In this document: piece after piece, positions 17,532 to 38,761 of the stretch | How the letters are laid out: each line of letters opens with the position of its first letter | Position numbering within the stretch: the first letter of the stretch is position 1 | From: an uncultured Planctomycetales bacterium | GTDB taxonomy: Bacteria; Omnitrophota; Gorgyraeia; Gygaellales; Profunditerraquicolaceae | Direction of reading: 5' to 3' | DNA: 64,000 nucleotides | NCBI GenBank assembly: GCA_964427405.1 | Contig: CAYRUB010000001.1 | Coordinates: 157,884-221,883 of the forward strand | Made by a program: the position numbers and the translations under genes | Notes under the pieces: generated by a model | Database searches by the model: none | The model's input: only the letters and a program-made list of their open reading frames with translations | What the model was told of the DNA's origin: nothing

Positions 17532-18821
17532 TCATTCCTCCTCTCCCTTACTTTCAGATACGGGTAGATACATCTCCTGCTTATCCTGCTTTTCAGTAGT
17601 TTCATCGAAATACGAAGTAGTACCGTCATCGTTTATAATGGTGTTGAGTTTCTCTTTCTCTGATTCTGATAAGATACCAGACATGGCTTCGTTGTAGTCT
17701 TTGTAGATCTGTCTTTCCTCTTTAAATCTTTCTAACTTTTCCTTCAGGTAATCATAATCCCTCTCAAACACGCCTCTCTGCACATCATCCAATCCTGGCG
17801 CGCGCATAGCTTCCAACAGGTCATCCATTGCCTGCCTGCATTGAGATATAGTTTTAAAATAAGCTATGTCAGAAGATAGCTTGGAAACAGCAATATATTG
17901 TTTTGCCTTAGGCATTAAGGTGATGTTTCTGATCTGCTCTTCTGTCACCGGGTTATTAGGCAAAGATAGCTCTTTTAAAGAGTCATTAGATAATGTTTTT
18001 GAATTCAAGTATCCATCCGTAAGGGAAAACAGCTTATTAGAGGTATCAGTTCTAAACTCATCGTTTACTTTGTAAATGGATTTTTCTCCCTTATTGTTTT
18101 CAATCTGGGATGCAGTAATTGTGGTTTCACCTACCACTGACTTAACAAAATCTTTCCTGTCATCAGGGATACTTATCTTTTTAAAGATATCGGAAAGCAC
18201 ATTAATCTTACCTCCCTGTGCCAAGGGAATGCCTTCGGCATTCTTCAGGAAGGCAAAAGGGTCTTTATTTTCTTTGCAAGCTTTAAGAGCGTTGTCTATA
18301 TCCAAACCCGTACCGACCTTTTCTTTAACACACTCACTTTCGCTTTTCTTCCTTAGCTTATCCATGTATTCACCGGCTGCCTTCTCGATGTCTTCGCACT
18401 GGGCATACCTTAAGCCTAAGCGCATATTTGTCATGGCATTAAAATGCTTGATGATATCAGCTAAAGTCGGTGAAACATACTCCAATAATAGCATGGGCGC
18501 AGCTGCCATGGCTTCGCTGGAGATACCTTTCATATAATCCGCCAGAATCTGCTCTGAAAGTACGCTATTAAAGCTTGAGGCAAGGTCAAAACCGCTGCAT
18601 CCTTTTGAGCCGCTAAGAATAGAATAACCTACTCCCGGCTCATCAGGCGGGACATTAGGATGATAATCAATACCTCCGCGGTAATAGAATCCGGTCCTAT
18701 CTTCGGAAATAGCGCTATCAATGGTATAAAGGCTAGAGGCATCATCTTTAGAGAAGATATCGGCATAGCTTATATGTGTTAGAGCCAAAATGAGAATTAA
18801 TAATATTAGGACTTTCTTCAT
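17532..18821 (-). CDS. traH: TraH-like F-type conjugative pilus assembly protein
   Basis: Signal peptide, about 430 aa, C-terminal coiled coil. Sits at the TraH position in an F-like gene order. Confidence 0.45.
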   Translation of the reverse strand: MKKVLILLILILALTHISYADIFSKDDASSLYTIDSAISEDRTGFYYRGGIDYHPNVPPDEPGVGYSILSGSKGCSGFDLASSFNSVLSEQILADYMKGISSEAMAAAPMLLLEYVSPTLADIIKHFNAMTNMRLGLRYAQCEDIEKAAGEYMDKLRKKSESECVKEKVGTGLDIDNALKACKENKDPFAFLKNAEGIPLAQGGKINVLSDIFKKISIPDDRKDFVKSVVGETTITASQIENNKGEKSIYKVNDEFRTDTSNKLFSLTDGYLNSKTLSNDSLKELSLPNNPVTEEQIRNITLMPKAKQYIAVSKLSSDIAYFKTISQCRQAMDDLLEAMRAPGLDDVQRGVFERDYDYLKEKLERFKEERQIYKDYNEAMSGILSESEKEKLNTIINDDGTTSYFDETTEKQDKQEMYLPVSESKGEEE

Positions 18822-19546
18822 TGAAATAGCTTTAATATCCTCTCCTCATCCATAAATCTAGATAGAAAATATCTCTGCTTTTTTTTGTTAAATACCGCAA
18901 TGCTTGGATAAGAATTAATCTTAAAAAGTCTGCTCATGCCGTTATCCTGTCTTGCCGGAAACCTAAACTCCTCCAATTCTCTGTCAGAAAAACCTTTGGT
19001 AAAGGCCTCAATTCTTATTTCAGGATGATTGAGGTAGATATCCTCTATCACCCGGGATTCCTTCTCGCAAGTCGGGCAGCCTTTTAGCATAAAATAAAAC
19101 AGGTATCCTGTTCCGGCTCTAGTGTCATCGCTCGAATCTTTAAAAGTTTCGCTGGATTTAAGCTCAAGCAGGCCTTTTGTTTCCTTCATTACATCAATCT
19201 CCTTTGCTTCTTTCTTTAGCAATTCCTGGGCTAAGATGAATTTCTTGATCCTTTTTAAATTCCACTGTAAATACGCCTTTGCGCTTTCCGGGTCAGGCTT
19301 ATCCAGAAAATCCCTTACCTCTTTAGGCGGGACATAGATAGTTACCTGTCCTGAAGGGCTGATTATCGGCTCAGCCCATTCGTCCGAAAGGATTTCGGAA
19401 GAATTGTTAGTATCTGCTGCTGCCGGTTCATTCTGCACCTCTGTCTCTTGGAAAAAATCAATCCGTCTATACTGAAAGATATTTTCTGCTTTTGCCAAAA
19501 CAAGATGAAATAGGAAAATAATAAACATAAGAATAAATAGTCTCAT
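18818..19546 (-). CDS. thioredoxin-fold conjugal protein (TraF/TrbB-like)
   Basis: Signal peptide. YFMLKGCPTCEK CxxC motif. Sits between the TraU-like and TraH-like genes. Confidence 0.45.
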   Translation of the reverse strand: MRLFILMFIIFLFHLVLAKAENIFQYRRIDFFQETEVQNEPAAADTNNSSEILSDEWAEPIISPSGQVTIYVPPKEVRDFLDKPDPESAKAYLQWNLKRIKKFILAQELLKKEAKEIDVMKETKGLLELKSSETFKDSSDDTRAGTGYLFYFMLKGCPTCEKESRVIEDIYLNHPEIRIEAFTKGFSDRELEEFRFPARQDNGMSRLFKINSYPSIAVFNKKKQRYFLSRFMDEERILKLFQ

Positions 19547-20097
19547 TTATAAAGTTTTGATATGAAATCATTAAAGTCAGATAAACCGGTTAGTTTTTGC
19601 TGGCTGCCGTTTTGAGTAATGATGTAAACCGGTGTCTTAATGATATTAAACTCTTTTGTAAGGATGCCACTTAGGTCAATGCTTAATTCAATACCAGAGC
19701 CAAAAAACTTCTGTTTAGTAAGCAGCTTTTGTTTTAAATTGTTCGAACTTCCGGTAATAACTCCCTTAACTTCCCAGCTGGGGTTATTATCCTTAAATCT
19801 AATCAAAGAACTAACCGCCTGGTCAAAAGAACTGTCGCTAAGATCGATAAATAAGGTAATCTCATTGCCGCTGGCATTCTTATTGAGATTGTTGGAAATC
19901 TTCTTTTCTATTGCTGCAACTTTATCTTTTAAATCCGGATTCAAATTGAGTGGATCGCCTTTACATTCGCTGCAGGCGCTTTGCTGTATTGAAGTATCTT
20001 TTTCATCGAAAAATCCCGCAATTACACAAGCCGGATTGAATAATATAAAAATACTTAAGACTGCACTTAATAAATACAACATATTCTTCTTCTCCAA
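19543..20097 (-). CDS. periplasmic conjugal transfer protein (TrbC/TraW-position)
   Basis: Signal peptide, 184 aa. Assigned by position only. Confidence 0.25.
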   Translation of the reverse strand: MEKKNMLYLLSAVLSIFILFNPACVIAGFFDEKDTSIQQSACSECKGDPLNLNPDLKDKVAAIEKKISNNLNKNASGNEITLFIDLSDSSFDQAVSSLIRFKDNNPSWEVKGVITGSSNNLKQKLLTKQKFFGSGIELSIDLSGILTKEFNIIKTPVYIITQNGSQQKLTGLSDFNDFISKLYK

Positions 20098-20975
20098 TAT
20101 ACCCAGAGGTATTTACCACTAGGAGATAATTTCCCAGATTCCCAGGTTGCCGGATGCTGACCTATTTTGATGCAGCCGGATGGATTCGGATAGATTAACT
20201 CCAGCTTATCGCTTTCAAAAGAAGGAATAAAGCCTGTTGTTTCTAAAACAATGTGCGAAGTAGAACCCAAGAGCGAAGCAATACTAATTGCTCTAGTTGC
20301 AGCTATTGCGCTTCCCACCACCTCGCTCTGATGCGTAACAAAACCGCGCCTGGGGTAAGTCGCTCCCCAGAACCCCATGCACAGATCATCCAAAAATGCT
20401 CCTGTTGCAGCGCAGGTCAGGCCACTTACTGCTGAGGCGATACTTTTTGGATGCAAAACCTCAATAGCCCCTATACGCCATTCCGCAGAATCTAATTCCG
20501 AGAGATACTTGATAAATGAGCCCGTTGGTAATTTATCTGGACACTGCATATCAATAAAAGACATAATTTCATCCCTGAACGGGAATTCATACACGTGCGC
20601 TTCATTAAACTGCAGGTTAGTGCCGGTTATCTTACTAGAGCTGGATCCGCTTGAAACACCTACAGGCAATCCGGTAAGCCCGGACATAAGGCTTTTAGCC
20701 CTCTGAGCTGCCATATCAGCGATAACCAGCTTTAGCGAATCGATTACACTGTCACCCGGGCGCTTGACGGTTTCAATTAAAAGAGCTGGTTCCCAATACA
20801 TGATTACGACCCCAGGGATACCAATAGGATTCACGCATACGCCGATTCCCCTTAGGTCTATGCAGTTTAAATTTACCATTCCCAGGATATCGATAGACTC
20901 AAGGGCAAAAGCTTTTCCTAATAAAACGAATAGGAACAAAACAATGCTGAAAGCCTTCTTTAATTTAGAGGTCAT
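20067..20975 (-). CDS. traU: TraU-like conjugal DNA transfer protein
   Basis: Signal peptide, about 300 aa, conserved Cys. Position relative to TraC/TraF/TraH fits the F order. Confidence 0.45.
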   Translation of the reverse strand: MTSKLKKAFSIVLFLFVLLGKAFALESIDILGMVNLNCIDLRGIGVCVNPIGIPGVVIMYWEPALLIETVKRPGDSVIDSLKLVIADMAAQRAKSLMSGLTGLPVGVSSGSSSSKITGTNLQFNEAHVYEFPFRDEIMSFIDMQCPDKLPTGSFIKYLSELDSAEWRIGAIEVLHPKSIASAVSGLTCAATGAFLDDLCMGFWGATYPRRGFVTHQSEVVGSAIAATRAISIASLLGSTSHIVLETTGFIPSFESDKLELIYPNPSGCIKIGQHPATWESGKLSPSGKYLWVYWRRRICCIY

Positions 20976-20979: not shown

Positions 20980-21807
20980 TTATGAGATTTTCATAATGAA
21001 GCAAAGGGCGTAATACGGCGGCAGTATGTTATGCGGCTGACCTCCACCCATGCTGCTGGTATTTGAAACTTGTGTTCCAGTACATAAAGGAGAACTGTGT
21101 CCATCATACCTGCTGTAGAATGTAGGTTCATTGTAAGCATGTGAATGTGCAGGCATCTCAACAATAGTTAAGATATGTTTTGCCTCTCCTCCAATCTTAG
21201 TTAATGAACCGGAAACATTCGTCATTGAAATACCACCTGAATCCTGCCTTGCTCCCACCACAAACCTGTCCCTTAAATCAGGGGTGCCATTCGTGCCATC
21301 GCAGAGCTGCCAGCCTGCAGGTATGGAAGCAACAGTACCTGGCCAGATAACGATTGAACCTATGGGGAGAGAATTATTTTGACTACCGGGTACAGGCACA
21401 GTGGTGCCGACAATAACGCCTGATACAGAAGTAGTAGGCAGGTCTCTTGCCACAAGATTAGTCCACTCTTGGGGCACAGTGGTTGATACCGTAAAAGCGC
21501 TTGTGTTTGAGGAAATAGTGTAAGCATTCTGCCAGGGATTAAAAGCACTCCAAGAAGGATTTAAGTATCCTGCGTTTTGTAAAACCTGGATACTCGCGGG
21601 CCAGGCGTTGTTAGTTGCGTAATACGATAATGCCGCCTGCTCTATTGTTGACATCTCAAGAGCAGTCTTTTCCCCAGCTTTAATCTGCATTCTTTTAATA
21701 AAGACAGGCGTAATGGATGAGGTTAGAATGACCAAAACCCCAAGAGCAATACAGAGCTCAATAAGGGAAAAACCCTTTTTATTGTTTATAGATGTATTTT
21801 TTCTCAT
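20980..21807 (-). CDS. prepilin-type N-terminus fused to phage tail-collar (MdpB-like) domain
   Basis: KKGFSLIELCIALGVLVIL is a class III signal with a methylation motif. C-terminal WPGTVASIPAGWQLCDGTNGTPDLRDRFVVGA is the tail-collar signature. Confidence 0.6.
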   Translation of the reverse strand: MRKNTSINNKKGFSLIELCIALGVLVILTSSITPVFIKRMQIKAGEKTALEMSTIEQAALSYYATNNAWPASIQVLQNAGYLNPSWSAFNPWQNAYTISSNTSAFTVSTTVPQEWTNLVARDLPTTSVSGVIVGTTVPVPGSQNNSLPIGSIVIWPGTVASIPAGWQLCDGTNGTPDLRDRFVVGARQDSGGISMTNVSGSLTKIGGEAKHILTIVEMPAHSHAYNEPTFYSRYDGHSSPLCTGTQVSNTSSMGGGQPHNILPPYYALCFIMKIS

Positions 21808-22252
21808 ACTTTAATTTCCAGGTTATTGATTCTAATGACTTAGTAACACTCACTAAATCGTTATTGCCTTGGTTTACCACCACAATTTCGCTACCGTAAC
21901 CTTTAGAGGTGATCAGGCCTTTTGGCAGAAGTGTAGATACCGAAACACTTGATGTGTTGGAGGTAATTATATAAGCATTACCAAAAGGATTAACATCGCA
22001 TGCCTCTTGCACCAGATAGCTGGGGCGTAGGTCGAATAAACTCACCGGCCACGCCCCACGCTCGCTGTAGAATCTCGTGCTTGCCAAAGCTATTGAATCC
22101 AGTTCTTCAAGCGCTCTTATGCCTGAAGCAACCTGGCGTATTTTTGCCGCAGAACAAAACACTGCGGAAATAAATACCCCTGCCAGCATAAGCACAAGGC
22201 TCAGTTCGACTAAACTAAATCCCCTCCTCCTTTTTAAAACGTTATCGTCCAT
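21779..22252 (-). CDS. pseudopilin (prepilin-type N-terminal cleavage/methylation domain)
   Basis: RRGFSLVELSLVLMLAGV prepilin motif. Confidence 0.6.
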   Translation of the reverse strand: MDDNVLKRRRGFSLVELSLVLMLAGVFISAVFCSAAKIRQVASGIRALEELDSIALASTRFYSERGAWPVSLFDLRPSYLVQEACDVNPFGNAYIITSNTSSVSVSTLLPKGLITSKGYGSEIVVVNQGNNDLVSVTKSLESITWKLKYEKKYIYKQ

Positions 22253-22668
22253 GTTTCAGATGCATAGCTTGTTGCTGCCGCGCTGTTAGCAAACAAGGCG
22301 CTCAGGCGCGCCGCCGCAGCAGCACTTACGCCGGTAAGTGAAATATCAACCTTATTGGCGTCGGTGTTCGGGTCTATCGCGTAGTTGCCGCCCCAGGGGT
22401 TTGAACCTGTTGCGGAAAATGCAGCAGGCAGATACCCTGACGTCTGCAGGCCCGCTACGCTTATTCCGGTATAGGTCATACTACCGCCTGCAATGTAGCT
22501 TTCCGCAGCCGTCCTTAGGGCCTTGACCGATTCGGAAGCCGAATGCACCTTGGCATTCTCCCTGATACCGCTGGTTAAACCTACTGCCATGATCAGAAGC
22601 GCGATGATGCTTATGACCAAGACCAGTTCGATCAGCGTAAAACCGCTTTTCTTGCTCCTTAACCTCAT
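22234..22668 (-). CDS. type IV pilin / pseudopilin
   Basis: Start at MRLRSKKSGFTLIELVLVISIIAL, which has a GGAGGTG RBS. The ORF-track upstream extension is rejected. Confidence 0.65.
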   Translation of the reverse strand: MRLRSKKSGFTLIELVLVISIIALLIMAVGLTSGIRENAKVHSASESVKALRTAAESYIAGGSMTYTGISVAGLQTSGYLPAAFSATGSNPWGGNYAIDPNTDANKVDISLTGVSAAAAARLSALFANSAAATSYASETWTITF

Positions 22669-22687
22669 TGCTCTCACCTCCTTTCTC

Positions 22688-23893
22688 CTAAAACTTAACA
22701 TTGCCTCCCGCAATGTTGGAAAGATTGCTGTAAACCGGCGTGATGAATGCCGAGACAACAAATAACAGAATCAGGGCGCAGAACACTAAAAGCGCAGGCT
22801 GGATAAAACTCAAAATTACGCGCGTGCGCCTTGAAACCTTCTCAAAATAATACTTGGAAAGATTCTGCAGATACTCATCAAGCGAACCCATTTCTTCGCC
22901 TTTTCTTACCGAATAATATATGAATGACGGAAAGAAAGAATCCTTGGCAAGCGCCTGCCAGAAACTTAGACCGCTTGCGATGTAGTCTTTTAGCCTGCCG
23001 ATCTTTTTGGCTAAGAACTGATAGGAAGTGGTTTCCTCAATCAGCGAAAGTGCATCAGCGATATTGATGCCGTTTCTTGAGAGGATCGCAAGGTTAGAGA
23101 AAAACACGCTGAAAGCCGCGTCTTTTGCAACCGGTCCGAAGAGCGGGATTTTGTAATAGTAAGAAGCAAGCCTTCCAGCTGGGCTTTTCCTGAACCTTGA
23201 ATAAATAAAAATACCGGCAACAGGGAACAATAGGCAGACAAACCAGTAATCCTTCAGGAAATGGCTTAAAAATAAAAGCAGCCTGGTTGAGAAATAATTG
23301 TTCCCCCTTATGGGAAGAAGCGCTTCCAGGTGCGGAATTACCTTAAAGGAAACATAGAACATTATCCCAATGAGCATAGAGAATACGACTGCCGGATAAA
23401 TCACAGCGTTCCTTAAACTGCGCAGGAATTCCGCCTCCCTGGAATAATACTGCGCCAGGTCAACAAAGACTTGCTCTAAGCTACCGGACTTCTCTCCTAC
23501 CTTAAGCGTGTTTAAAACCAGCCAAGGGAAAACTTTTGTTTTCTCAAAGGCCTTAGCCAGAGAAAAACCGTTGGCAAGATCATATTCGATCCCCGATAAG
23601 GCTTTAGACAATACCTTATCAATGGATGACTCGCGCAGAGCGCTTATCGCCTCGTTCATGGCAATACCGGTTTTAAGCATATTAGCCAAATCCTCAAAAA
23701 ATAAAGACAGACTTTGCGCCTTGACGGTCTTTTTTTCCAGGATAAACTTTATTGACTTAAAGAAATCCGCTTCCAGGGACAATATGTAATAATTTTTCTC
23801 TTTTAGCCTTTTCGCTATTTCTGGGGATGTCCCCCGCTCAAAGCCTTTGATTTCATTTCCGGTTTGAGTCAAGACGCTGTATCTGTAATACAT
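22688..23893 (-). CDS. pilC: type II secretion / type IV pilus platform protein (GspF/PilC family)
   Basis: 401 aa, duplicated GspF-type domains with 3 TM segments. Confidence 0.8.
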   Translation of the reverse strand: MYYRYSVLTQTGNEIKGFERGTSPEIAKRLKEKNYYILSLEADFFKSIKFILEKKTVKAQSLSLFFEDLANMLKTGIAMNEAISALRESSIDKVLSKALSGIEYDLANGFSLAKAFEKTKVFPWLVLNTLKVGEKSGSLEQVFVDLAQYYSREAEFLRSLRNAVIYPAVVFSMLIGIMFYVSFKVIPHLEALLPIRGNNYFSTRLLLFLSHFLKDYWFVCLLFPVAGIFIYSRFRKSPAGRLASYYYKIPLFGPVAKDAAFSVFFSNLAILSRNGINIADALSLIEETTSYQFLAKKIGRLKDYIASGLSFWQALAKDSFFPSFIYYSVRKGEEMGSLDEYLQNLSKYYFEKVSRRTRVILSFIQPALLVFCALILLFVVSAFITPVYSNLSNIAGGNVKF

Positions 23894-25537
23894 CTATCCG
23901 AGTATCCTTTCCGCTTCTTCAAGTGAGGTTAGTCCTTTTAAAAGAAGCGTTCCCGCGTCCTGCTCCAAAGTTAGATACGCTTTTTCTCTCCATTTGTGCC
24001 TCAACTGGTCGAGTTTTCCGGAAGCAACCATGTCGCGGATTTCCTCGTCAAAATCCAGGATCTCGGCAATTACGGTACGCCCTTTATAACCTCCCTGGCA
24101 GTGTTCGCAGCCCCCTGCCTTAAACAAACGAATCTCATTTTCGTTTTCGCCAAGCAGGAGATTCTTAAAAGAATCAGGCATATTTTCCTTTTTAACCTTA
24201 ACCCTCTTCCTGCAGAAAGGGCAGAGCTTGCGTATTAGCCTTTGGGAAATGACACAAAGAATACTGTTTGCGATATAAGACAGATCGATACCTAAGTCAT
24301 GCAGCCTGTAAATGGAATCTACCGCGGTATTGGTATGCAATGTAGAAAGCACCCTGTGGCCGGTGATGGATGCTCGTATAGCTTCCTGCGCCGTATCAGC
24401 GTCTCTAATTTCGCCGATTAAAATAATGTTAGGATCATGCCTTAAGAAGGCTCTTGTGGCATGGGCAAAGCTTATGCCCTGTTTTTCGTTAATCTGCACC
24501 TGGTTTATAAGCGGCATTTTAATCTCCACAGGATCCTCAATAGTCAATACTTTTGTGGAGAGGTCTTTAAGCTGATTCAAGATGGCATAGAGTGTGGTGG
24601 TTTTACCGCTTCCTGTGGGCCCGGTGATAATGATAATACCGTGGGGCTTACGCACTATGCGGCGTATATTGTCAAAGTGCAAATCATCAAAACCCAGGTT
24701 GGGAAGAGTAATCAGGGTTTTATTTACATTCAAGAGCCTTAGAACAAGCGCCGGACCGAAAACAGAGGGAATGCTCGATACCCGGATATCCACGGAATGA
24801 TCCGAATAAGTGTGCTGGAACCTGGCGTCATGGAAGCGGTAAAAGTCAGATACGGTAATCTCTGCGCGGCTAAAAACCACATTTATTAAGTTGTTATGCA
24901 CCTCCAAAGGTATACAAAACTTAAAGTAAAGTATGCCGTCGATCCTGAAGCGTATGGTGGATATTTTTTCTTCAGGCTCAATGTGGATATCGGTGGCATT
25001 ATGGATAATCGCGTCATTAAGCAGCTCATCCAAGAGCTCTTTTAGCTCATCGCCAACAACGCCTCTTTCCTTAAGCAGGTTTATTCTCTTGTCAATCTCC
25101 TGCTTTATTTTTTTGTTCTTAAGCAGCTCCAGATGCGCTCGGATTGTGCTTTCGCTGCCGATATAAAACTCTTTGTCGCGCAGCCCCAAGATAGCTAAAA
25201 GATCAGTTGCCTCGATATCAAAAGGATAGGCGAAAATAAAGCTAAGTCCGTTCTCTGTTTCAACCGGGACAAATGCCCTGTCTATCAGAAAATCCAGGCC
25301 TATCTTTTCTATTACCGGAAGGTCTAAGACATACTTTTTGTCAAAATACCTCCAGCCAACCTGCCTTGCTAATGCCCTTGCTATATCTTCGTCGCTTGCG
25401 AAGTTGTAATATTTAAGAATCCTTCCTAACCTTTGACCGGGGCTGGTATTCCTCTGAATAGTCAGGGCAAATTCAAGCTGCTCTTTGGTGATTACTTTAG
25501 AGCTTAAAAGGATGTTTCCTATTTCTTGTACAGGCAT
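23894..25537 (-). CDS. pilB: GspE/PilB-family assembly ATPase
   Basis: GPTGSGKTTTLYA Walker A, Asp/His boxes, N-terminal GSPII_E-N-like domain, tetra-Cys zinc site (CPFC...CEHC). Confidence 0.85.
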   Translation of the reverse strand: MPVQEIGNILLSSKVITKEQLEFALTIQRNTSPGQRLGRILKYYNFASDEDIARALARQVGWRYFDKKYVLDLPVIEKIGLDFLIDRAFVPVETENGLSFIFAYPFDIEATDLLAILGLRDKEFYIGSESTIRAHLELLKNKKIKQEIDKRINLLKERGVVGDELKELLDELLNDAIIHNATDIHIEPEEKISTIRFRIDGILYFKFCIPLEVHNNLINVVFSRAEITVSDFYRFHDARFQHTYSDHSVDIRVSSIPSVFGPALVLRLLNVNKTLITLPNLGFDDLHFDNIRRIVRKPHGIIIITGPTGSGKTTTLYAILNQLKDLSTKVLTIEDPVEIKMPLINQVQINEKQGISFAHATRAFLRHDPNIILIGEIRDADTAQEAIRASITGHRVLSTLHTNTAVDSIYRLHDLGIDLSYIANSILCVISQRLIRKLCPFCRKRVKVKKENMPDSFKNLLLGENENEIRLFKAGGCEHCQGGYKGRTVIAEILDFDEEIRDMVASGKLDQLRHKWREKAYLTLEQDAGTLLLKGLTSLEEAERILG

Positions 25538-26201: not shown

Positions 26202-26676
26202 AGAGCCGCATGGTTACAGTAACGATGCCTTTTTCTATGCTTACATCCAAAACATCAAGCGGCTTGGATTTCAACATTTTATAAAGCGCATCGAGTAAAT
26301 ACGAATTGCGCTGTTTTCTTAGATCAAAAGAGCATGCAAGATCAACATACTTTGCCCCCTTGTATTGAGACTCCTTGAAAAAGTTCCGGATATTTACCAG
26401 GTCTTTTGCGCCGATAATCTTAACCTCGCAAGGCGCGCGGTAATAAAAGGAGAGCTCTTTTATGTCGTTAAACACCTCAAGATAAAACTTTTCCAGGGAA
26501 AGCGGCTTCTCACTCTTATATTTAACTAGAGTTGCCTGCTCTTTTTTAATTTGGCTGATTTCGCTAACAGCGTTTTTTATGCCTCGGTTAATCGTGTTTA
26601 TTTCCGAGGCAAGATTCCACAGCAATACCATTAAAGCCAAAAGCGTTACTACAAAAATCAGGGTTATTCTTTTCAT
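26191..26676 (-). CDS. PilO-like bitopic membrane protein (putative)
   Basis: Single N-terminal TM, then coiled coil. Confidence 0.3.
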   Translation of the reverse strand: MKRITLIFVVTLLALMVLLWNLASEINTINRGIKNAVSEISQIKKEQATLVKYKSEKPLSLEKFYLEVFNDIKELSFYYRAPCEVKIIGAKDLVNIRNFFKESQYKGAKYVDLACSFDLRKQRNSYLLDALYKMLKSKPLDVLDVSIEKGIVTVTMRLYGT

Positions 26677-32594: not shown

Positions 32595-32992
32595 TTTTTA
32601 TCTATTTCCTTATATGGTAGTATTAAAGGGATCTTCGTTTCATTCTTGCTTTGGCTATCGATAAACCAGCTTGATTCTTTTACCATGATATAAATCCAGT
32701 GTCCTGCCACCAAGACTTCAGGAGCGGATTTTGATTTATGCGCAGGAATCCAGACAAGGCGCACATCAGCTGGTTCAACCACAGGCACATAGGGCTTTAC
32801 ATAGCCGAACGCCTGTTTTATTTTTAAGTTGTCCTTTATATAATTAACTGAGTCAGCTCTTCCGTTTGAAACAGCTTGCAGGTATACGTCCATCACCTTA
32901 TTTGGGTTTTCCTTAACTAACCCTTTAGACGCAGCGCAGCCGCTAGTCATCAAAAGAGCCAAAATTACTGCTTGTAACTTCAAGGCCTTCAA
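32591..32992 (-). CDS. TraV-like outer-membrane lipoprotein
   Basis: Likely TTG start at 32992 with an AAGGAG RBS, giving MKALKLQAVILALLMTSGC lipoprotein signal. The ORF-track start at 33040 would overlap TraB by about 100 nt. Confidence 0.4.
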   Translation of the reverse strand: MKALKLQAVILALLMTSGCAASKGLVKENPNKVMDVYLQAVSNGRADSVNYIKDNLKIKQAFGYVKPYVPVVEPADVRLVWIPAHKSKSAPEVLVAGHWIYIMVKESSWFIDSQSKNETKIPLILPYKEIDKK

Positions 32993-34175
32993 TTTGCACT
33001 CCTTTCTGGATAACCAAAACCGCTTTTTTCCCCGCTTCAATCTTTACCGCGGGGATCATGGCTTCTAATTGTTTCTGGTAATAGCTGGACATTCCTTGCG
33101 CGCTGTTAGCCAGGCCTGAGAACATGGAATAACGTCCGGTGTTTCCGGTAACATTTTTAGAGGTCTGCCCGTAGGCGCCGACAACGCTGGAAGTTTCTGA
33201 TTCGGAAAGCGCTCCAGCGCCTCCAGCCAGGAATCCGGACAGGAAACTTAAACTCAATTGCTTTCCTGTATTGTAGATAAGCTCACCTGGTATGCCCAAA
33301 TGCCCGTCATCATCAGCCAGATACCCTAAATTTGATTCATGTTCAAAGACTTTACCATCCGGTAAAACTGTAGAAAAACTAACTACCTGGATAACCGCCC
33401 TCTTTGAGACCACGTCTCCTACTGCCTTACCAATGGCAAAGGCACCTTTTAAAGGGACTCTGGTATTATTCGGGCCGTAAAAGGCCTCATCCACGCTGAT
33501 TAATACCGGCAGGGGATTGCTTTCATTGGCAGGGGCATAAACGCCGGTAAGAAGAGTGCATTTGACAAAGCTGCCCAAAGGAAGATAAACGTACCTCTTC
33601 CCGGGAGCTTTTTCCTCGTTTCTTATTTCGCCGACCTTAGCCGTCTCTAAGTTAACCGATTGCTTGAGAGCTTGCGGCGTAGATACCGAGCCTATCAATG
33701 ACTCTTCCAAGGATCCGGCGCTTTGCCCCCGCTCAATGCTTTTTTTCGATAAAGGATTTTGCTTGTTGGCATCAGACATCCTCTTATCAAGATCGATAAC
33801 AATCTTGCTGACCTGGGTCTGGTTCTTGCGCAGGTCCTGGGAACTTTTTTCCACGGAAGCCATACGCTCATTTAAGGAATCGAACTTTGAAGAAATGTCG
33901 TAATACTGTTTTTCAATGCGGTTAACATAGGACTTGGTATCCACAGAGCCGGTTAAGACGCCCACGTCCTTATCCTGCCCGGATGAGGCGGCTTGTTTTC
34001 CTGCTGCCAGATCAAGGCTTTTCCTGATTTCTTTGGTTTCCTTGCTTCCTGCGAATAATAGGAACGCAAGTGCACCCATAAGAGTCAAAATAACTACAGC
34101 GGTAAATTTAGGATTATTGCGCGCTGCCTGCGGAAGCTTATTAAACCCGGGTATTTTATCTAGAGATATTTTCAT
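32943..34175 (-). CDS. traB: TraB/VirB10-family protein
   Basis: N-terminal TM, Ser/Lys-rich linker, C-terminal TrbI/VirB10-like domain (GxVxG..A). Position fits the F order. Confidence 0.65.
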   Translation of the reverse strand: MKISLDKIPGFNKLPQAARNNPKFTAVVILTLMGALAFLLFAGSKETKEIRKSLDLAAGKQAASSGQDKDVGVLTGSVDTKSYVNRIEKQYYDISSKFDSLNERMASVEKSSQDLRKNQTQVSKIVIDLDKRMSDANKQNPLSKKSIERGQSAGSLEESLIGSVSTPQALKQSVNLETAKVGEIRNEEKAPGKRYVYLPLGSFVKCTLLTGVYAPANESNPLPVLISVDEAFYGPNNTRVPLKGAFAIGKAVGDVVSKRAVIQVVSFSTVLPDGKVFEHESNLGYLADDDGHLGIPGELIYNTGKQLSLSFLSGFLAGGAGALSESETSSVVGAYGQTSKNVTGNTGRYSMFSGLANSAQGMSSYYQKQLEAMIPAVKIEAGKKAVLVIQKGVQIEGLEVTSSNFGSFDD

Positions 34176-34891
34176 TGGTTCAGTCCTTCTACAACCATAT
34201 AAGCTTTTGTCATATAGACGGAAGTTTTCTTTTTAATATCGTGCGGCCGCGGTTCAAGTATTTGAGTATCGATGCTGATGGTTAATAACCCAGGAAGTTC
34301 GATGTGCTCAATTGGCACAACCAGAGGCTTCCAGGTCAAGTTCTCAAAAGTCAAACAGAAGGCTTTTACGTTATTGGAAAATTCATAAACCTCATCTATA
34401 CTGATGCGTAATTTAGCGTTATTAAATATCTCCCTATGATTCAGTGTTGAGTTAACTGCGCCAGGCGGCTGCCTACCGGAAAGAAGGGCTTTCATCAGCT
34501 CAACCGTGTTTAGCGCATTCGCCTCTTCTTCGTTTGTCTGCTGATGATGATTATCAATCTTTATGCGGCTGGCTGCCCGGGCTTCATCCATGATCAGATG
34601 CAGGCAAAAAGATTCATTATCCTGAGTAACCACATAAACTTTAGAATCAAGGCTTTCCCGGGCCAGGAGAAACATCCTGTTTCCCAAAGTCTCAATCTGT
34701 AAGGCCTCGCTTGAAATGCTTTTTGTAATATTGGCGATCTTTTCCGGAAATTCCGCTTCCGTGATCATCCCGGTCTTTAGCCTTACAGTAATCTCAGAAT
34801 TATAATCCGAGGCTCTTGAAATATTTACTTGTCCTATAAATAACAACCCGGAAATAATCAATAAAATAGAAATTTTCCTGAATATCGTCAT
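34172..34891 (-). CDS. traK: TraK/VirB9-like protein
   Basis: Signal peptide, 239 aa. Assigned by order. Confidence 0.5.
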   Translation of the reverse strand: MTIFRKISILLIISGLLFIGQVNISRASDYNSEITVRLKTGMITEAEFPEKIANITKSISSEALQIETLGNRMFLLARESLDSKVYVVTQDNESFCLHLIMDEARAASRIKIDNHHQQTNEEEANALNTVELMKALLSGRQPPGAVNSTLNHREIFNNAKLRISIDEVYEFSNNVKAFCLTFENLTWKPLVVPIEHIELPGLLTISIDTQILEPRPHDIKKKTSVYMTKAYMVVEGLNQ

Positions 34892-35505
34892 TTTATCTCT
34901 ACCTCTTCCTGTTTTACCCCGGCGATCACCAAGCCGTAGGGGTTGGTTTCAATAGGCGGGATTCTTTGCAGGGTCACCGTATAGCAAAGAATTCGGTCAT
35001 CCAGCTTTTCCTTGCCCATAAAAATAATCTTTTCTCCTGTTAAAGTTACTTTAAAATCAGCGCTTGAATCTTCAAGCACCGGGTCTTTGCTTAAAGAGAA
35101 TAATGACGAGATATTGTCGCGCTCAACACGGGATATTTCATCCTCTAAGGAAGCTTTTGTCCTGGAAAGAAGTCCCGGAGCCATATAGCGCATTGCTCTT
35201 TGATAGGTGTCTTTTACTGTTTGGGGTGTGAAATTATTGCGGTTTAGAAGCCAGTTTGAGGCAAAACCACAGACTACGGCTTTATCTATATGATTGGGGT
35301 AGGCGACACCTGCCTCCTGCGCGCTTGGAATGTAATAAATAGCCTGGGGTTTTGTGGATACCCTGAATAAGGTAAACAGCAACCCTATGCAAAAAGCAAC
35401 TACGGCAAAAAGCGTGATTCCCAGAAATGCGGAAGTCTTTTCTGCGTGAGCCCACTTCTCAATAAAGCCTGTGCGTTTTGTTTTTTCTGTTTTTAGTTCG
35501 CTCAT
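34888..35505 (-). CDS. traE: TraE/VirB8-like bitopic protein
   Basis: Single TM then periplasmic domain. Assigned by order. Confidence 0.5.
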   Translation of the reverse strand: MSELKTEKTKRTGFIEKWAHAEKTSAFLGITLFAVVAFCIGLLFTLFRVSTKPQAIYYIPSAQEAGVAYPNHIDKAVVCGFASNWLLNRNNFTPQTVKDTYQRAMRYMAPGLLSRTKASLEDEISRVERDNISSLFSLSKDPVLEDSSADFKVTLTGEKIIFMGKEKLDDRILCYTVTLQRIPPIETNPYGLVIAGVKQEEVEIK

Positions 35506-35685
35506 GGCAAATAAAAAAAGGCTGGCCTTCCGAATGTTGATTCGGAAAACCAGCCCAGTTTTTCTCTGGTCTATTGTTCAGACCGAGGATACTGTGACTG
35601 AAAATTTACATTAATTAATTCTTGACTAACTTATACACCCTACTTTTTAATTTGTCAAGTTTATTTTTTTAGTCTTTTTTTATTC

Positions 35686-35877
35686 TTACTTAATTACAGA
35701 CCAAACCAAAGAAATCACCCATCCCAAAACTGTCCAGCCTAAAAACAGGTTTAATAAAAATATCGCCAGCATATTTTTATGCTGCCTTAAAAAAGCGATC
35801 AATGTCGGCAGGAAATAAAAAGCAAAAAATAATACTGCCAACAATAATCCCAGCACCGTGAAATTCTGCATCTGCAT
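35686..35877 (-). CDS. small two-TM membrane protein
   Basis: 63 aa, hydrophobic. Confidence 0.3.
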   Translation of the reverse strand: MQMQNFTVLGLLLAVLFFAFYFLPTLIAFLRQHKNMLAIFLLNLFLGWTVLGWVISLVWSVIK

Positions 35878-35879
35878 AT

Positions 35880-36167
35880 CTAACCCTCTCTCCTAAAAAC
35901 CGAATACCTGTTTATTTTCTTTGGCGGATCGATCAAGCCTTTTATTCTTACGCCATGTTTGTAAAACAAATGCGTAAGGTATCCTTGAGGCTTACCTTGC
36001 TTTATTAACCTTAAGAAGATCCAACCACCAAAGAAAACCATACCTGCGTAAAAAGTATCAAAGAATAGTATCATCGAGCCGCAGGCTAAAGCCAGTATAC
36101 CCACATCTTCAGGCTCGAGCCCAAAAAGAAGCAGCGGTTTATCAATGGTGCGCAGGCATTTTCTCAT
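35880..36167 (-). CDS. traL: TraL/VirB3-like protein
   Basis: ...GKPQGYLTHLFYKHG resembles the TraL family (G.Y..HL.Y). Confidence 0.5.
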   Translation of the reverse strand: MRKCLRTIDKPLLLFGLEPEDVGILALACGSMILFFDTFYAGMVFFGGWIFLRLIKQGKPQGYLTHLFYKHGVRIKGLIDPPKKINRYSVFRREG

Positions 36168-36490
36168 TATTGCTTAAACAACCCTTCCAGTATCTTGGGT
36201 ATGAACATCAATATCATGAACCCAAAGCCGCAGGCAATTGCAACACCCTGCTTGCCGTTTAAAAGCGCGATTACGCCGCCAATCAAAAGTACCGCTCCCA
36301 GGATCTTTGATACCGGCCCTGTGAGAATATTGATGATAAATGTGGCAAAGTCGCTCACCACCTGCTGCTCCTGGGTTGTGCTTATCTGGGCAAAGACATA
36401 GGGCGCAGCCAATATGGATAACCCAAGCACGAGGCACAGGACCGCAAGAGTCCTAACCACAAACTTCTTCCTGTTGATTTGCTTAAACAT
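36167..36490 (-). CDS. conjugative pilin (TraA/TrbC/VirB2-like)
   Basis: Signal peptide plus two hydrophobic helices. First gene of the tra block. Confidence 0.5.
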   Translation of the reverse strand: MFKQINRKKFVVRTLAVLCLVLGLSILAAPYVFAQISTTQEQQVVSDFATFIINILTGPVSKILGAVLLIGGVIALLNGKQGVAIACGFGFMILMFIPKILEGLFKQ

Positions 36491-36493
36491 TAC

Positions 36494-38761
36494 TCATCCC
36501 TCCTTTGGTTTATTGTCATATTCAAACGGGCTTGCGATAAGCCTGTCTTTTACCTTTTTATCAAATAAAAACTCGTGATTTGCGATTACCGTGAGTTTTT
36601 CCCTTAAGAAAATAACACTCTTTGAAAACGGCAGCCTTAAAAACACATTCTCTGAAATGTAATTCTTAACCGCAGTACGGATATTTCCCTGGGCGGATCT
36701 TAAACCGTCGAGCTTGACTCCTGCTTTATCATTGCTTATATTATCCACCTGAAGTACAGTTTTATCCTGATAGGTGGTCTGTCCAGTTTTATCAGACCAG
36801 AACCTTGCGTCAAAAGGATCCTCCTGCATAAAAATTACTTTGGTTGCGGTATTGGTAAAAATCGCATTCTCAAATGCTTTCGATACATTGGATAGGTTTC
36901 CCCGCGACTGATTGGACAGCACAAGACAAAAATTAGCGCTCCTTACTTTAGAGATTACATCCACGAAGTGAGAACAAGCTAAATTCTGGAACTCATCGAT
37001 AAAGATAAAAAACGGTGGATCGGTTTCCTTACGGAATACAGCCTGTGACTTAAGGTCAATAATAAGCATCCTACCTATTGCTTCAGCCAAACGCGTATTC
37101 ACCTGGCTCTTTAGGGCAAAGAATGCCACATCGCCGTTTTTGATTACTTTGGCTAAATCCAGTTCAGCGCGGTTTATCACATCAATACCGGCAATCCAGG
37201 AGACTGCTGCCAAGAGCCCCTTAACTTCCTGTGTACTTACATCCGTCCTTTCTAAGAAGGCGGGATTCTCCAAAGCCTCTTTGACCGAAAGGAAATTTAT
37301 CTCCTTGTTTTCCTGAATTTTTTCCTTTAATAATCCGATGAAGGCCATTGCCTGCACATTAGAGTAAAAACCAGCCGGGCCCTGGTAAATAAGCTCTAAG
37401 GCAGTCATAATCCTGTCGACCTTGGAATGAATATCGCCTGATGAAAGCGGATTATACCCAATTGAGGGTTCATTAGGATCAATGCTGAAATAATAAAATT
37501 TCTTGCCCGCTTGCCTCGCTCTCTCCTGAACGTACTTCTTAAAAACCTCGTCTCCCTTAAAATCTATAAAGCAGCAACCTCTGCCTTTTTCTATAGCCTG
37601 CCTGCTTAAAGGAAGTATCACTAGGGAAGTTTTTCCGCCTCCTGTGGAGCCTAATACGTGCAGATGGCGGTTAAGGATATTTTCTTCTACAACAACATCC
37701 TGCTTATCATCTGAGACAGCCAAAAAATATTTGTCCGTCTTTGCGTACTGATTCAGTTTTTTGTTGATATCGAAGTGGACTTTTTTAAATTCAACCGTCT
37801 CGATGGAAAGCTCTTTTCTTTTTTGCGTTTCCTTATCAACTTTTAAGAAGTCCTCTAGTTCCCGCCTCTTGCGCGGCATTACGTGTTTGATTAAATAAAT
37901 AATGCCAACTGCAGTAAAACCGATAACCGACAAGCCAAAAGCTATAATCAAAAATAACCTTCCCTCTTTCATAATAAAACCGTTCCAGAAACTCCAAAGG
38001 ATCACCTGCCAGCCGTCATTACTAAATGCCAGGTTTATGTCATGGTAGCCAATCCTGCCAAACCAATAGGCAAACACCCAAAACAAGTAATAAAACCAAA
38101 GCCAAAAACTCCTTGTTGCCATAACCACAAAGAAAACACCTATCCCTATTAACCCCAAAACGTCATAAGGAAGACCGTTATCTTTAAAGATATTTCCCAT
38201 GGCTCTTGAGACGAGCACCGTGTCAGAGTAGAGCCAGGGGTATTTCTTTTCGAGTCTCTCAAGAAATAAATAAGGCTCCAAAGCCAGAGCATCTTTAGTC
38301 CTGCCTGATTTCTTAAGAAGATCGCTAAGCTCTCTTACTGACAAGCTTCCCAATCTTTTCTTAGGGTTCTTAAGTTCGTAAGCTATGGCCCGTGAATATT
38401 CTCCGGTCATGGCAAAAGTCTTTGGCAGAGCGATATCGCTTCCTGAAGGCGAAAAGTCAAAATTCCACGTTCCGGGCACCTCAAAATATCCGGATACCTT
38501 AAAATAGGTTGAATCCGGATCAGGATTAGCAGCCTCATGTGGCGGCACAACCATAACCAAAGCCTTGCTGCCAGAGATATCTTCTAAGGACGAGCCTAAG
38601 AGACTGATCTTCATAACCACAGGGATATTGTCAAAGGGTCCCAAAATGACACACTTTCTGCCGTAATTAAAACCTACATACCAGCCGAATCCTATGTAGA
38701 AAAGCGGAATCAGTATTAATAACCTTATAAACCTACTCTTTAAACTAAGCGGTTTGTCCAT
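36494..38761 (-). CDS. traD: type IV coupling protein (TraD/VirD4 family)
   Basis: N-terminal TM helices, HLHVLGSTGGGKTS Walker A, FIFIDEFQ Walker B. Confidence 0.8.
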   Translation of the reverse strand: MDKPLSLKSRFIRLLILIPLFYIGFGWYVGFNYGRKCVILGPFDNIPVVMKISLLGSSLEDISGSKALVMVVPPHEAANPDPDSTYFKVSGYFEVPGTWNFDFSPSGSDIALPKTFAMTGEYSRAIAYELKNPKKRLGSLSVRELSDLLKKSGRTKDALALEPYLFLERLEKKYPWLYSDTVLVSRAMGNIFKDNGLPYDVLGLIGIGVFFVVMATRSFWLWFYYLFWVFAYWFGRIGYHDINLAFSNDGWQVILWSFWNGFIMKEGRLFLIIAFGLSVIGFTAVGIIYLIKHVMPRKRRELEDFLKVDKETQKRKELSIETVEFKKVHFDINKKLNQYAKTDKYFLAVSDDKQDVVVEENILNRHLHVLGSTGGGKTSLVILPLSRQAIEKGRGCCFIDFKGDEVFKKYVQERARQAGKKFYYFSIDPNEPSIGYNPLSSGDIHSKVDRIMTALELIYQGPAGFYSNVQAMAFIGLLKEKIQENKEINFLSVKEALENPAFLERTDVSTQEVKGLLAAVSWIAGIDVINRAELDLAKVIKNGDVAFFALKSQVNTRLAEAIGRMLIIDLKSQAVFRKETDPPFFIFIDEFQNLACSHFVDVISKVRSANFCLVLSNQSRGNLSNVSKAFENAIFTNTATKVIFMQEDPFDARFWSDKTGQTTYQDKTVLQVDNISNDKAGVKLDGLRSAQGNIRTAVKNYISENVFLRLPFSKSVIFLREKLTVIANHEFLFDKKVKDRLIASPFEYDNKPKEG

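Follow-up and report, generated by a model that had tools for sequence, protein, structure and literature searches.

The stretch analysed here, referred to as the window, comprises 64,000 nucleotides of contig CAYRUB010000001.1 (assembly GCA_964427405.1, positions 157,884 to 221,883 of the forward strand), which is deposited as an uncultured Planctomycetales bacterium and placed in the Omnitrophota by GTDB. Pfam and NCBIfam scans find in it a single packed minus-strand array, from position 41158 down to 17532, in which genes of an F-like type IV secretion system (T4SS) enclose a block of type IV filament genes. All substantial open reading frames (ORFs) within 17.5-41.2 kb are on the minus strand. 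Read 5' to 3', TraG_N comes first and is followed by a 90-aa ORF, a MobC-type relaxase candidate, a type IV coupling protein (T4CP), a VirB2-like pilin, TraL and an Imm_superinfect protein; then by TraE, TraK, TraB, TraV, TraC and a 151-aa lipoprotein; then by a secretin, a GspL-like protein, a 76-aa ORF, a 161-aa and a 220-aa protein, a PilB-like ATPase, PilC and three prepilins; and finally by TraU, a 184-aa ORF, a thioredoxin-like TraF/TrbB and TraH, the last gene. The filament genes occupy about 8.7 kb at the TrbI/TraW position. Coordinates and family matches are presented in Table 1. The ORFs were called mechanically, many family matches are sub-threshold, and NCBIfam and Pfam models serve as a proxy for T4SS typing.

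Table 1. Features of the minus-strand array, in order of transcription, and of the genes downstream of it (window coordinates).
Feature	Position	Strand	Evidence
TraG_N, VirB6-like polytopic membrane protein	39788-41158	-	PF07916 E 6.5e-11, covers 38-439; orthologue first in ~30 loci
90-aa conserved ORF, Velamenicoccus-like clade only	39515-39787	-	no family match; orthologues in L003-L006
MobC-family (MOBC-type, PD-(D/E)xK) relaxase candidate, 257 aa	38745-39518	-	NF041423 E 7e-13, sub-cutoff; Pfam Replic_Relax E 5e-5
T4CP (TraD/VirD4-like)	36494-38761	-	TraG-D_C, T4SS-DNA_transf, TrwB_AAD_bind; TIGR03743 SXT_TraD E 2.5e-29
VirB2/TrbC-like T4SS pilin	36167-36490	-	PF04956 E 6.8e-5, sub-cutoff; signal peptide and two hydrophobic helices; orthologues in 33 loci
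TraL (VirB3-like)	35880-36167	-	PF07178 E 1.4e-4; TIGR02762 E 2.5e-5
63-aa two-helix membrane protein, Imm_superinfect ('superinfection immunity') family	35686-35877	-	PF14373 E 4e-20; conserved in Velamenicoccus-like clade
Hairpin, 17-bp stem and T-run; likely attenuator/terminator after pilin-TraL genes	35519-35556	-	top terminator-like site
TraE	34888-35505	-	PF05309 E 1.3e-9; TIGR02761 E 3e-10
TraK (VirB9-like outer-membrane core)	34172-34891	-	TIGR02756 TraK_Ftype E 1e-3, weak; no Pfam match
TraB (VirB10-like)	32943-34175	-	PF03743 TrbI E 2.3e-20; F-type TraB NF010289 E 3e-22
TraV lipoprotein (VirB7-like)	32591-33040	-	PF09676 E 2e-4, above cutoff; lipobox LLMTSGC
TraC (VirB4 ATPase)	30057-32594	-	TraC_F_IV E 6e-26; P-loop_TraG E 1e-48; TIGR02746 374 bits
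TraC-linked lipoprotein (lip151, 151 aa)	29615-30070	-	lipobox LAGC|S
Secretin (outer-membrane channel); first gene of the filament block	28168-29715	-	PF00263 E 3.7e-38, with N0/STN/Secretin_N_2
GspL-like (PilM-PilN fusion) assembly protein, 394 aa	26987-28171	-	structure prediction
76-aa ORF, Velamenicoccus-like clade only	26749-26979	-	orthologues in 11 loci; no family match
161-aa bitopic protein, PilO/GspM position	26191-26676	-	N-terminal transmembrane helix; adjoins GspL-like gene in 33 loci
220-aa bitopic protein, GspC-HR/GspB/PilP-like C-terminal domain	25539-26201	-	PF16537 T2SSB E 1.5e-5; NF037978 GspB E 2e-4
PilB/GspE-type extension ATPase, MshE-type N-terminus	23894-25537	-	T2SSE E 9e-106; MshEN E 1.2e-6
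PilC/GspF platform protein	22688-23893	-	T2SSF E 4e-49, two repeats; GspF E 1e-57
Major prepilin	22234-22761 (as called)	-	N_methyl E 8e-7; weak PilS and Bundlin matches
Minor prepilin	21779-22252	-	N_methyl E 5e-5; TIGR02532; G|FSLVE leader
Minor prepilin fused to phage tail-fibre/collar receptor-binding domain, 275 aa	20980-21807	-	N_methyl and Collar
TraU	20067-20975	-	PF06834 E 2e-34; TIGR03756 (ICE-type) E 2e-16, better than F TraU E 3e-8
184-aa secreted protein at TrbC position	19543-20097	-	signal peptide; no family match
Thioredoxin-fold TraF/TrbB-like periplasmic protein, CPTC motif	18818-19546	-	TraF E 3.9e-4; Thioredoxin_2 E 3e-3; TIGR02740 weak
TraH; last gene of the array	17532-18821	-	PF06122 E 1.5e-14; best NCBIfam is ICE-type TIGR03755, E 2e-14
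ISNCY transposase, in two ORFs (221 and 203 aa)	16129-17414	-	profile positions 2-192 and 212-352
AbiEi antitoxin and AbiEii nucleotidyltransferase toxin	14668-15998	-	
LexA repressor	13682-14317		
Type II CBASS-like anti-phage system	5156-11483	-	
CBASS part: patatin-like phospholipase	10548-11483	-	
CBASS part: DncV-like CD-NTase/SMODS	9347-10546	-	
CBASS part: ThiF/E1-like protein	5964-6890	-	
CBASS part: JAB-domain protein	5156-5962	-	

The genes of the array overlap or leave at most 7 nt between them, except at two gaps, one of 72 nt inside the filament block (26676-26749) and one of 180 nt that separates the Imm_superinfect gene from TraE; the latter holds the only strong hairpin with a T-run in the array. 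At the two junctions between T4SS and filament genes, TraC shares 14 nt with the lipoprotein gene, and 4 nt separate the last pilin gene from TraU; neither junction has a promoter-sized gap, and the hairpin is far from both. Given these overlapping or near-touching genes, and a sole strong hairpin located away from the T4SS/filament junctions, the array is predicted to be one co-transcribed operon, in which the hairpin may set the ratio of pilin to machinery transcripts.

The initial annotation, which covered positions 17532 to 38761, had listed gene classes that are all present on the minus strand in the order it gave, although its list omitted the 76-aa ORF. It had taken the T4SS pilin as the first gene of that interval, a place that belongs to the T4CP, and had recognised no TraG, whereas a TraG_N/VirB6-like gene lies just outside the interval. 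TraN and TraW, which it also did not recognise, have no match among the ORFs of the array or the window in the family scans, and neither has TrbC. Its central observation, a filament and secretin module between TraC and TraU, is borne out by strong secretin, T2SSE, T2SSF and N_methyl matches. The module does stand in the place of trbI/traW, as it had proposed, given that TraU lies 7.7-9 kb after TraC, compared with 0.5-3.3 kb in proteobacterial F-like outgroups. That position would suit the reading, raised by the same annotation as the one that would overturn it, in which the filament genes are divergent TraW/TrbI/TraN-type components. However, the secretin (E 3.7e-38), T2SSE (E 9e-106) and T2SSF (E 4e-49) matches, the three class-III signal peptides and the predicted GspL/PilM fold of the 394-aa protein leave this reading with a negligible probability.

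Family assignments of the two gene sets

TraC scores best against the F-type model TIGR02746 (374 bits, cutoff 567), compared with only 175 bits against PFL_4706, of the type found in integrative and conjugative elements (ICEs), and its TraC_F_IV Pfam match is above that family's cutoff. TraB, TraE and TraL also score highest against F-type models; TraU and TraH score highest against the ICE-type models TIGR03756 and TIGR03755 (PFL_47xx, associated with mating-pair formation type G, MPF_G), and the T4CP against SXT/TOL-type TraD. PFL_47xx proteins are the best match for TraU and TraH only, and not across the system. The NCBIfam matches of these T4SS proteins all fall below the curated cutoffs. 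The F-specific set TraE/K/L/V/B/U/F/H is detected throughout, several members weakly, in F order, and a local TraK profile also finds the proteins at the TraK position in proteobacterial F-like loci (L057-L076). Given the mixed best-family scores, all of them sub-cutoff, the T4SS is best described as an F-like system that branches deeply and contains some components of G-like character. In distant-clade loci that reach TraU, a TraF-like ORF comes directly next, with no ORF at the position of the 184-aa protein.

The filament block reads as a complete type IV filament module, with secretin, PilB-family ATPase, PilC platform and class-III pilins all present, and by its family scores it fits no known class cleanly. 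The best NCBIfam matches of the secretin are MshL (229 bits) and PilN of type IVb pili (173 bits), both sub-cutoff. The ATPase scores equally as PilB and as GspE (TIGR02538 and TIGR02533, about 385 bits each); it also matches the cyclic di-GMP (c-di-GMP) motif model NF053729 at 47.8 bits, above the cutoff of 38, and the motif RLGRIL...ALARQ is seen in its translation. For the 394-aa protein, structure prediction returns an actin-like cytoplasmic domain, a ferredoxin-like periplasmic domain and a membrane-spanning segment (hydrophobic residues 250-268) inside a long helix (236-310), a model that points to a GspL/PilM-type fold. Sequence and profile searches of PDB and Pfam with the 394-aa, 161-aa and lipoprotein families gave nothing useful. 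The 161-aa protein is a candidate PilO/GspM by position and topology only. The top PDB matches of the 220-aa family profile are GspC HR domains (3oss_C, E 0.026; 7oio; 2lnv), all weak, and this protein is a candidate for the secretin-contacting component.

The three prepilins carry G|F(S/T)LxE leaders, with 9-11 residues before G|F and Glu at +5. The major prepilin, called as a 175-aa ORF, probably starts 30 codons later, at Met31 (about 22671), because a class-III signal peptide begins there (MRLRSKKSG|FTLIELV) and the orthologue in Candidatus Velamenicoccus archaeovorus is annotated as 141 aa. Residues 143-260 of the 275-aa pilin match PDB entries 6ov6 (E 1.4e-8), 9nxk (E 6.9e-8) and 9qgo (E 8.5e-8), and the GW..C[DN]G motif of this tail-fibre domain is present in 15 of 16 orthologues, across clades. 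The domain and the conservation of its motif make the 275-aa pilin a credible candidate for a tip adhesin, with a role like that of PilV in R64 and TP114.

Conservation of the arrangement and the lipoprotein-secretin fusion

The arrangement was compared in a scan that took a single genome for each GTDB species and searched it with a TraC alignment; this yielded at least 75 loci, which were annotated with tblastn and iterated local profiles. The scan is pattern-limited, and the counts given here make no claim that the array is universal in the phylum. The same gene order recurs in about 45 independent loci, so homologous loci with the same insertion, for which the initial annotation had called, do exist. 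The secretin follows TraC in 36 of the 38 Omnitrophota-type loci with at least 2.5 kb of sequence past TraC (within 1 kb in 34 of them), and this adjacency is kept down to 44% TraC identity. The two loci without a detected secretin involve a contig end in one case and a run of N in the other. In one of the two loci whose secretin lies more than 1 kb away (L019, JAJXTI010000009, 2982-9177), an insertion of about 6.5 kb, carrying an outer-membrane efflux protein and an AcrB-family resistance-nodulation-division (RND) pump, stands between TraC and the lipoprotein-secretin pair. Loci at 44-48% TraC identity, for example L021, L023, L026, L027 and L033, still have the complete order through PilB, PilC, pilins, TraU, TraF-like and TraH. 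Given the same order in about 45 independent loci, with genes packed across the junctions, the arrangement is not due to chance.

Across 15 loci, the pairwise distances of TraC correlate with those of PilB (0.97), PilC (0.98), the GspL-like protein (0.97) and the secretin (0.89), compared with 0.95 for TraB, itself a T4SS gene. None of 2000 permutations in a Mantel test gave a correlation as high, and restricting the comparison to the distant subset leaves the correlation in place. Since the filament genes have diverged along with TraC as tightly as two T4SS genes have with each other, the filament block appears to have been captured once, before these lineages diverged, and to have been co-inherited since.

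The lipoprotein next to TraC belongs to a family (alignment A7) with homologues in 132 Pseudomonas-type megaplasmids. In two annotated Pseudomonas/Halopseudomonas megaplasmids, the homologue overlaps the stop codon of a TraC-like ATPase (profile E 3.4e-16), and the clusters concerned, which run T4CP...TraE-TraK-TraB-TraV-TraC, contain no pilus genes. Because the family follows TraC where pilus genes are absent, the 151-aa lipoprotein is best assigned to the T4SS lineage and not to the pilus, against the initial annotation, which had counted it within the type IV pilus block.

Seven Omnitrophota-type loci (L025, L026, L027, L030, L034, L035 and L044) have no separate lipoprotein gene. In all seven, the lipoprotein core, with the consensus W..P.VQEV..PA.I..GV.YP.H.E.V.I.PG.W, forms the N-terminus of the secretin ORF, directly before the secretin N-domain. 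The first iterated profile had absorbed secretins, reflecting a real fusion, which was confirmed with a clean lip151 profile. A gene fusion of this kind is a classical sign of two proteins acting together, and hence it argues for a physical coupling of both machines, in which the secretin complex would be tied to the T4SS core through the lipoprotein. This tie is seen only as a gene fusion.

Some loci hold only part of the array. Five loci from which PilB, PilC, pilins, TraU and TraF are missing (L029, L031, L032, L039 and L051) keep the secretin together with the GspL-like and 161-aa proteins beside TraC, a retention that fits a core association of T4SS and secretin. Others stop after the secretin, the 220-aa protein or two pilins, and housekeeping genes follow. 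The large ORFs beyond such truncated arrays encode histidine kinases, a radical SAM enzyme, WaaA, an RND pump and similar proteins, and not TraN or TraG.

These partial loci can also be taken to mean that the two machines are independent, with an ordinary attachment or motility pilus that merely sits in the tra array and is co-transcribed with it. The Omnitrophota commonly have type IV pili interpreted as serving host attachment (PMC10066038), and the block is self-sufficient in secretin, alignment proteins, ATPase, platform and pilins. Nevertheless, co-location without coupling has to contend with adjacency in 36 of 38 loci, with divergence as tight as between two T4SS core genes, with the lipoprotein::secretin fusion, with secretin and GspL-like genes kept by TraC where PilB, PilC and pilins are missing, and with the lack of a promoter-sized gap at either T4SS/filament junction. 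We therefore consider it unlikely.

Several comparison loci carry the label 'Planctomycetales'. One locus (L031) is labelled Candidatus Elulimicrobium (NCBI: Patescibacteria group) and another (L044; TraC 39% identity, with the lipoprotein::secretin fusion) Micrarchaeia archaeon; either mis-binning or transfer beyond the Omnitrophota would account for these labels, a secretin in an archaeon being implausible. Several distinct TraC copies occur in single metagenome-assembled genomes (MAGs; CAYOMI01, PCRK01 and JADFWS01), perhaps through paralogy or mixed populations. In JAYVSG010000040 (L053, 1-6614), a second pilin-TraL-TraE-TraK set comes directly after TraC, lipoprotein, secretin and an enlarged GspL-like protein of 515 aa, which indicates putative tandem paralogous arrays.

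Genomic setting and likely substrate

Upstream of TraG_N are a GDSL lipase, an MscS-type channel, purC, phosphoenolpyruvate carboxykinase, trxB, def and ack-pta. Downstream of TraH are a split ISNCY transposase, an AbiEi/AbiEii pair, lexA and a type II CBASS (cyclic oligonucleotide-based anti-phage signalling) system. A megablast search of the 21-kb region against 72,556 PLSDB plasmids returned no DNA match, and its plasmid matches at the protein level reach merely 25-35% identity, TraC being only 25% identical to the best plasmid TraC (IncA/C type); a known plasmid backbone was ruled out on these grounds. Of the TraC homologues in a large protein collection, those sharing 45-91% identity come from Candidatus Omnitrophota/Omnitrophica wherever the source is named. 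The complete chromosome of Ca. Velamenicoccus archaeovorus LiM carries a TraC of 72% identity in the same annotated gene order and in a single copy (CP019384, 602710-625244; L001/L013). Given the housekeeping flanks and the close homologues from Candidatus Omnitrophota genomes, the array is chromosomal and not part of a plasmid.

A chromosomal array could still be an ordinary ICE or plasmid remnant that spreads horizontally among the Omnitrophota with an R64-like thin pilus. A T4CP together with a MobC-like gene would suit such an element, as would the split ISNCY transposase, AbiE pair and CBASS system beside the array, a genomic neighbourhood that varies between relatives, several TraC copies in single MAGs (CAYOMI01, PCRK01) and the tandem second set of L053. 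However, no integrase was found among the scanned ORFs, no tRNA lies in the window, and the array ends share no direct repeat of at least 14 nt and no att-like repeat. Moreover, the GC content of the array is the same as that of its flanks, the 72,556 plasmids hold no DNA match, housekeeping genes abut both array ends in many lineages, and the complete V. archaeovorus genome has one copy only. This explanation is accordingly regarded as quite improbable.

As for the substrate, VirB4 and T4CP are clear in the locus, and the relaxase is a sub-threshold candidate. An invariant PDG...ALEVE.RYK motif of the PD-(D/E)xK type is present in the latter (alignment A3), and a MobC-like profile found no match in PDB. 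T4CP homologues in the large collection are at least 69% identical among the 120 matches listed. Only the 10 loci of the Velamenicoccus-like clade, whose TraC is at least 72% identical, have a T4CP and a MobC-like gene between TraG_N and the pilin; in deeper clades, the pilin comes directly after TraG_N, which is itself preceded by housekeeping genes. The large ORFs in front of TraG_N there, examined for a T4CP, instead encode an ATP-binding cassette (ABC) transporter, LeuA, a U32 peptidase, a tetratricopeptide repeat (TPR) protein and the like. The T4CP profile is sensitive enough to detect the T4CP of the megaplasmids, and the absence of T4CP and relaxase covers about 10 kb on either side of these loci. 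Since a T4CP and a MobC-type candidate belong to the operon, DNA is the substrate indicated in the Velamenicoccus-like clade, to which the window belongs, whereas their absence from the deeper clades suggests that DNA transfer is not the ancestral or general function, unless the genes lie elsewhere. Loci that have no T4CP may encode an interaction machine that is not conjugative.

This distribution also bears on a further explanation, in which the whole is a non-conjugative host or prey system whose T4SS injects or takes up protein or nucleic acid, whose pilus provides targeting, and to which T4CP and MobC were a later addition. Such a system would be chromosomal, as this array is, widespread in deep Omnitrophota lineages and directly flanked by housekeeping genes, and most clades do lack a T4CP or relaxase at the locus despite the sensitive T4CP profile. 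The lack of an integrase among the scanned ORFs, and of a tRNA or att repeat, agrees with this, as do the conserved tail-fibre-type adhesin and the epibiotic predation of V. archaeovorus, for which transfer into prey has been proposed (PMC13153191). Yet no effector candidates were identified, the T4CP and relaxase-like gene in the operon of the clade of the sole cultured representative point to DNA, and in other clades a T4CP could lie beyond the roughly 10 kb covered on each side. We hold this explanation to be rather improbable.

Some features of the surroundings were observed in addition. The ISNCY element directly downstream of TraH is a disrupted insertion sequence copy, and the LexA gene is next to the AbiE pair. 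In the V. archaeovorus array, the last pilin and TraU are separated by a pair, encoded on the opposite strand, of a GNAT acetyltransferase and a TacA-type antitoxin, and a NYN-domain gene lies between the Imm_superinfect gene and TraE; these insertions suggest that small selfish modules are tolerated within the operon. In one locus (L006, PCRK01000021, 18479-21039), the array ends at PilC and is followed by homologues of window positions 58959-62354, namely an alpha/beta hydrolase, a PALP enzyme and a Cys/Met pyridoxal phosphate (PLP) enzyme. The window has these genes about 18-21 kb upstream of TraG_N, a difference that reflects either a rearrangement or mis-assembly of the MAG.

A proposed contact-and-transfer apparatus and its relatives

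T4SSs and type IV pili are separate machines in textbook accounts, and in R64 and PAPI-1 they cooperate from adjacent, distinct gene clusters: in R64 the pil genes stand apart as a block of their own next to a Dot/Icm-like MPF_I system, and the pilus genes of PAPI-1 likewise form a distinct cluster. That thin pili are associated with conjugation systems is already known; both R64 and PAPI-1 use thin type IV pili in conjugation (PMC3548315, PMC5297154, PMC9045228), and Guglielmini et al. suggested that the association might be ancestral (PMC3548315). What is new here is the interleaving of the two gene sets, its deep conservation in a candidate phylum, the fusion of a T4SS lipoprotein with the secretin, and a tail-fibre-tipped pilin. 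A full-text literature search found no published description of the arrangement, and neither a Tra/T4SS cluster nor its union with a pilus is described for the Omnitrophota in Seymour 2023, West-Roberts 2023, two 2026 preprints or the 2026 Kizina intron paper.

By analogy, the conjugative thin pili of R64 and PAPI-1 appear to be the closest counterparts. R64 (IncI1, pilI-V with Tra/Trb MPF_I) and TP114 (IncI2) combine pilus and T4SS on one genetic unit, as here, and their adhesin pilin picks the partner-cell surface (PMC3548315, PMC9045228). The gene order secretin, actin-like protein, small bitopic protein, ATPase, platform, pilin and adhesin pilin is shared with the type IVb (T4b) systems of the R64, bundle-forming pilus (BFP) and toxin-coregulated pilus (TCP) type. 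Unlike in R64, however, the pilus genes here lie inside an F-ordered operon, the T4SS is F-like, and the locus is chromosomal in Omnitrophota. R64 T4b prepilins have a long leader and a non-Phe residue at +1, whereas the leaders here are short and of the G|F type; the ATPase is of the PilB/GspE type with an MshE-type N-terminus, the secretin is nearer to MshL than to PilN-T4b, the adhesin domain is of the phage tail-fibre type, and no PilU peptidase, PilT transglycosylase or shufflon is present among the scanned ORFs. PAPI-1 is an integrated element with a T4SS and a type IV pilus that recognises recipient lipopolysaccharide (PMC5297154, PMC3548315). The PAPI-1/pKLC102/SPI-7 family (MPF_G, ICEHin1056-type, with a type IVb pilus) resembles the present array in combining T4SS and pilus and in the ICE-type best matches of TraU and TraH; it differs in that TraC, TraB, TraE and TraL here are best matched by F-type models, an integrase and att sites are unseen, and the relaxase candidate is MobC-type.

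With the F plasmid and MPF_F, the array shares the order pilin-TraL-E-K-B-V-C...U...F...H, a backbone also found in the outgroup F-like locus L059. In contrast to F, only the N-domain of TraG is present and it comes first, the T4CP is upstream of the pilin, and no TraN or TraW was detected among the ORFs. The Pseudomonas/Halopseudomonas megaplasmids pSMJS2 (NZ_CP123446, L078) and p2014S09-209-1 (P. aeruginosa, NZ_CP131786, L079) share the T4CP-small ORFs-TraE-K-B-V-TraC-lipoprotein backbone, but they are plasmid-borne and proteobacterial, are annotated as nearly all hypothetical in this region, and have no secretin or pilus genes there. In PLSDB the two are typed as non-mobilizable, and one of them as MPF_I, although local profiles detect in them an F-like order of T4CP, TraL, TraE, TraK, TraB, TraC and the lipoprotein. 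Finally, the filament block is like type II secretion systems (T2SSs) and the mannose-sensitive haemagglutinin (MSHA) pilus in its fused PilM-N GspL-like protein, GspC/GspB-like domain, MshE-type motif, MshL match and GspG/H-like leaders. It departs from T2SSs in having three pilins rather than the five of GspG-K, no GspC PDZ domain, no GspI/J/K homologues and the secretin first; and all of its T2SS and MSHA matches are below equivalog cutoffs, the block being embedded in a T4SS operon.

Taken with the co-divergence and the fusion, these features suggest that the T4SS and the type IV filament are one co-inherited contact-and-transfer apparatus, a reading to which we assign somewhat better than an even chance. 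In the mechanism proposed, PilB, licensed by c-di-GMP, and PilC would push a thin pilus out through the secretin, and the tail-fibre-like tip pilin would bind a glycan on the surface of the partner cell. The TraC-linked lipoprotein would tie the secretin complex to the T4SS core, and the T4SS would form the transfer channel at the contact so stabilised. The logic of R64 and PAPI-1, where a thin pilus selects and holds the recipient, would here be hard-wired into a tra operon, and in the Velamenicoccus-like clade the result would be a chromosomally fixed, conjugation-type apparatus with DNA as its substrate. The Omnitrophota genomes commonly carry type IV pili, which have been read as host-attachment organelles (PMC10066038), and V. 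archaeovorus is an epibiotic predator for which the transfer of molecules into prey was proposed (PMC13153191). Since the hosts of the array are epibiotic predators or parasites with such a proposed transfer, the partner may not be a sibling but a cell of the host or prey.

Several observations weigh against this apparatus. The relaxase candidate matches the MobC-family model NF041423 at 48 bits, where the cutoff is 200 bits, no oriT was identified, and none of the deeper clades has either the T4CP or the relaxase candidate at the locus. Neither a prepilin peptidase nor a PilT-type retraction ATPase is present in the block, which implies dependence on genes elsewhere, or no retraction; no peptidase was found among the scanned window ORFs, and one may be encoded elsewhere in the genome. 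The fusion is an association, and not a mechanism, of an uncharacterised lipoprotein family, and the shortened loci could reflect decay or split loci instead of modular use. The genomic position of the array differs among relatives. Lastly, most comparison loci are MAG contigs, and the labels of L031, L044 and several 'Planctomycetales' loci are doubtful.

A bolder form of the contact-and-transfer reading is an ancient, fixed chimera, with a secretin and a GspL/GspM-type complex built into the F-like T4SS and tethered by the TraC-linked lipoprotein, a tail-fibre pilus that docks onto a host or prey cell, and DNA or protein that is moved across the contact; we put it forward as a tentative possibility that is more probably wrong than right. 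Concerning the two options left by the initial annotation, a thin-pilus system captured inside the tra operon agrees with the module's location, yet a recent plasmid-style capture does not agree with a chromosomal array whose filament genes have diverged together with the T4SS. Nor is the pilus clearly of the R64 T4b type, given its short T4a/T2SS-type leaders, MshE-type ATPase N-terminus and GspL-like protein. The other option, a hybrid mating apparatus, finds backing for 'hybrid' in the lipoprotein::secretin fusion of seven loci. The term 'mating' is only partly justified: the operon of the Velamenicoccus-like clade has a T4CP and a relaxase candidate, and the deeper-clade loci have neither.

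These results raise a secretin-coupled T4SS as a testable possibility, and they provide a function-linked context for an uncharacterised lipoprotein family that is shared with the T4SSs of multidrug-resistance Pseudomonas megaplasmids. The hypothesis is open to direct examination, as this locus is also carried by V. archaeovorus, for which an enrichment culture and omics data exist. The Omnitrophota are ultra-small, mostly uncultured epibiotic predators and parasites, for which cell contact and the exchange of material are at issue. If true, the chimera would provide the physical means by which members of the phylum prey on or parasitise other cells as epibionts, and it might also underlie the high lateral gene transfer reported for them.

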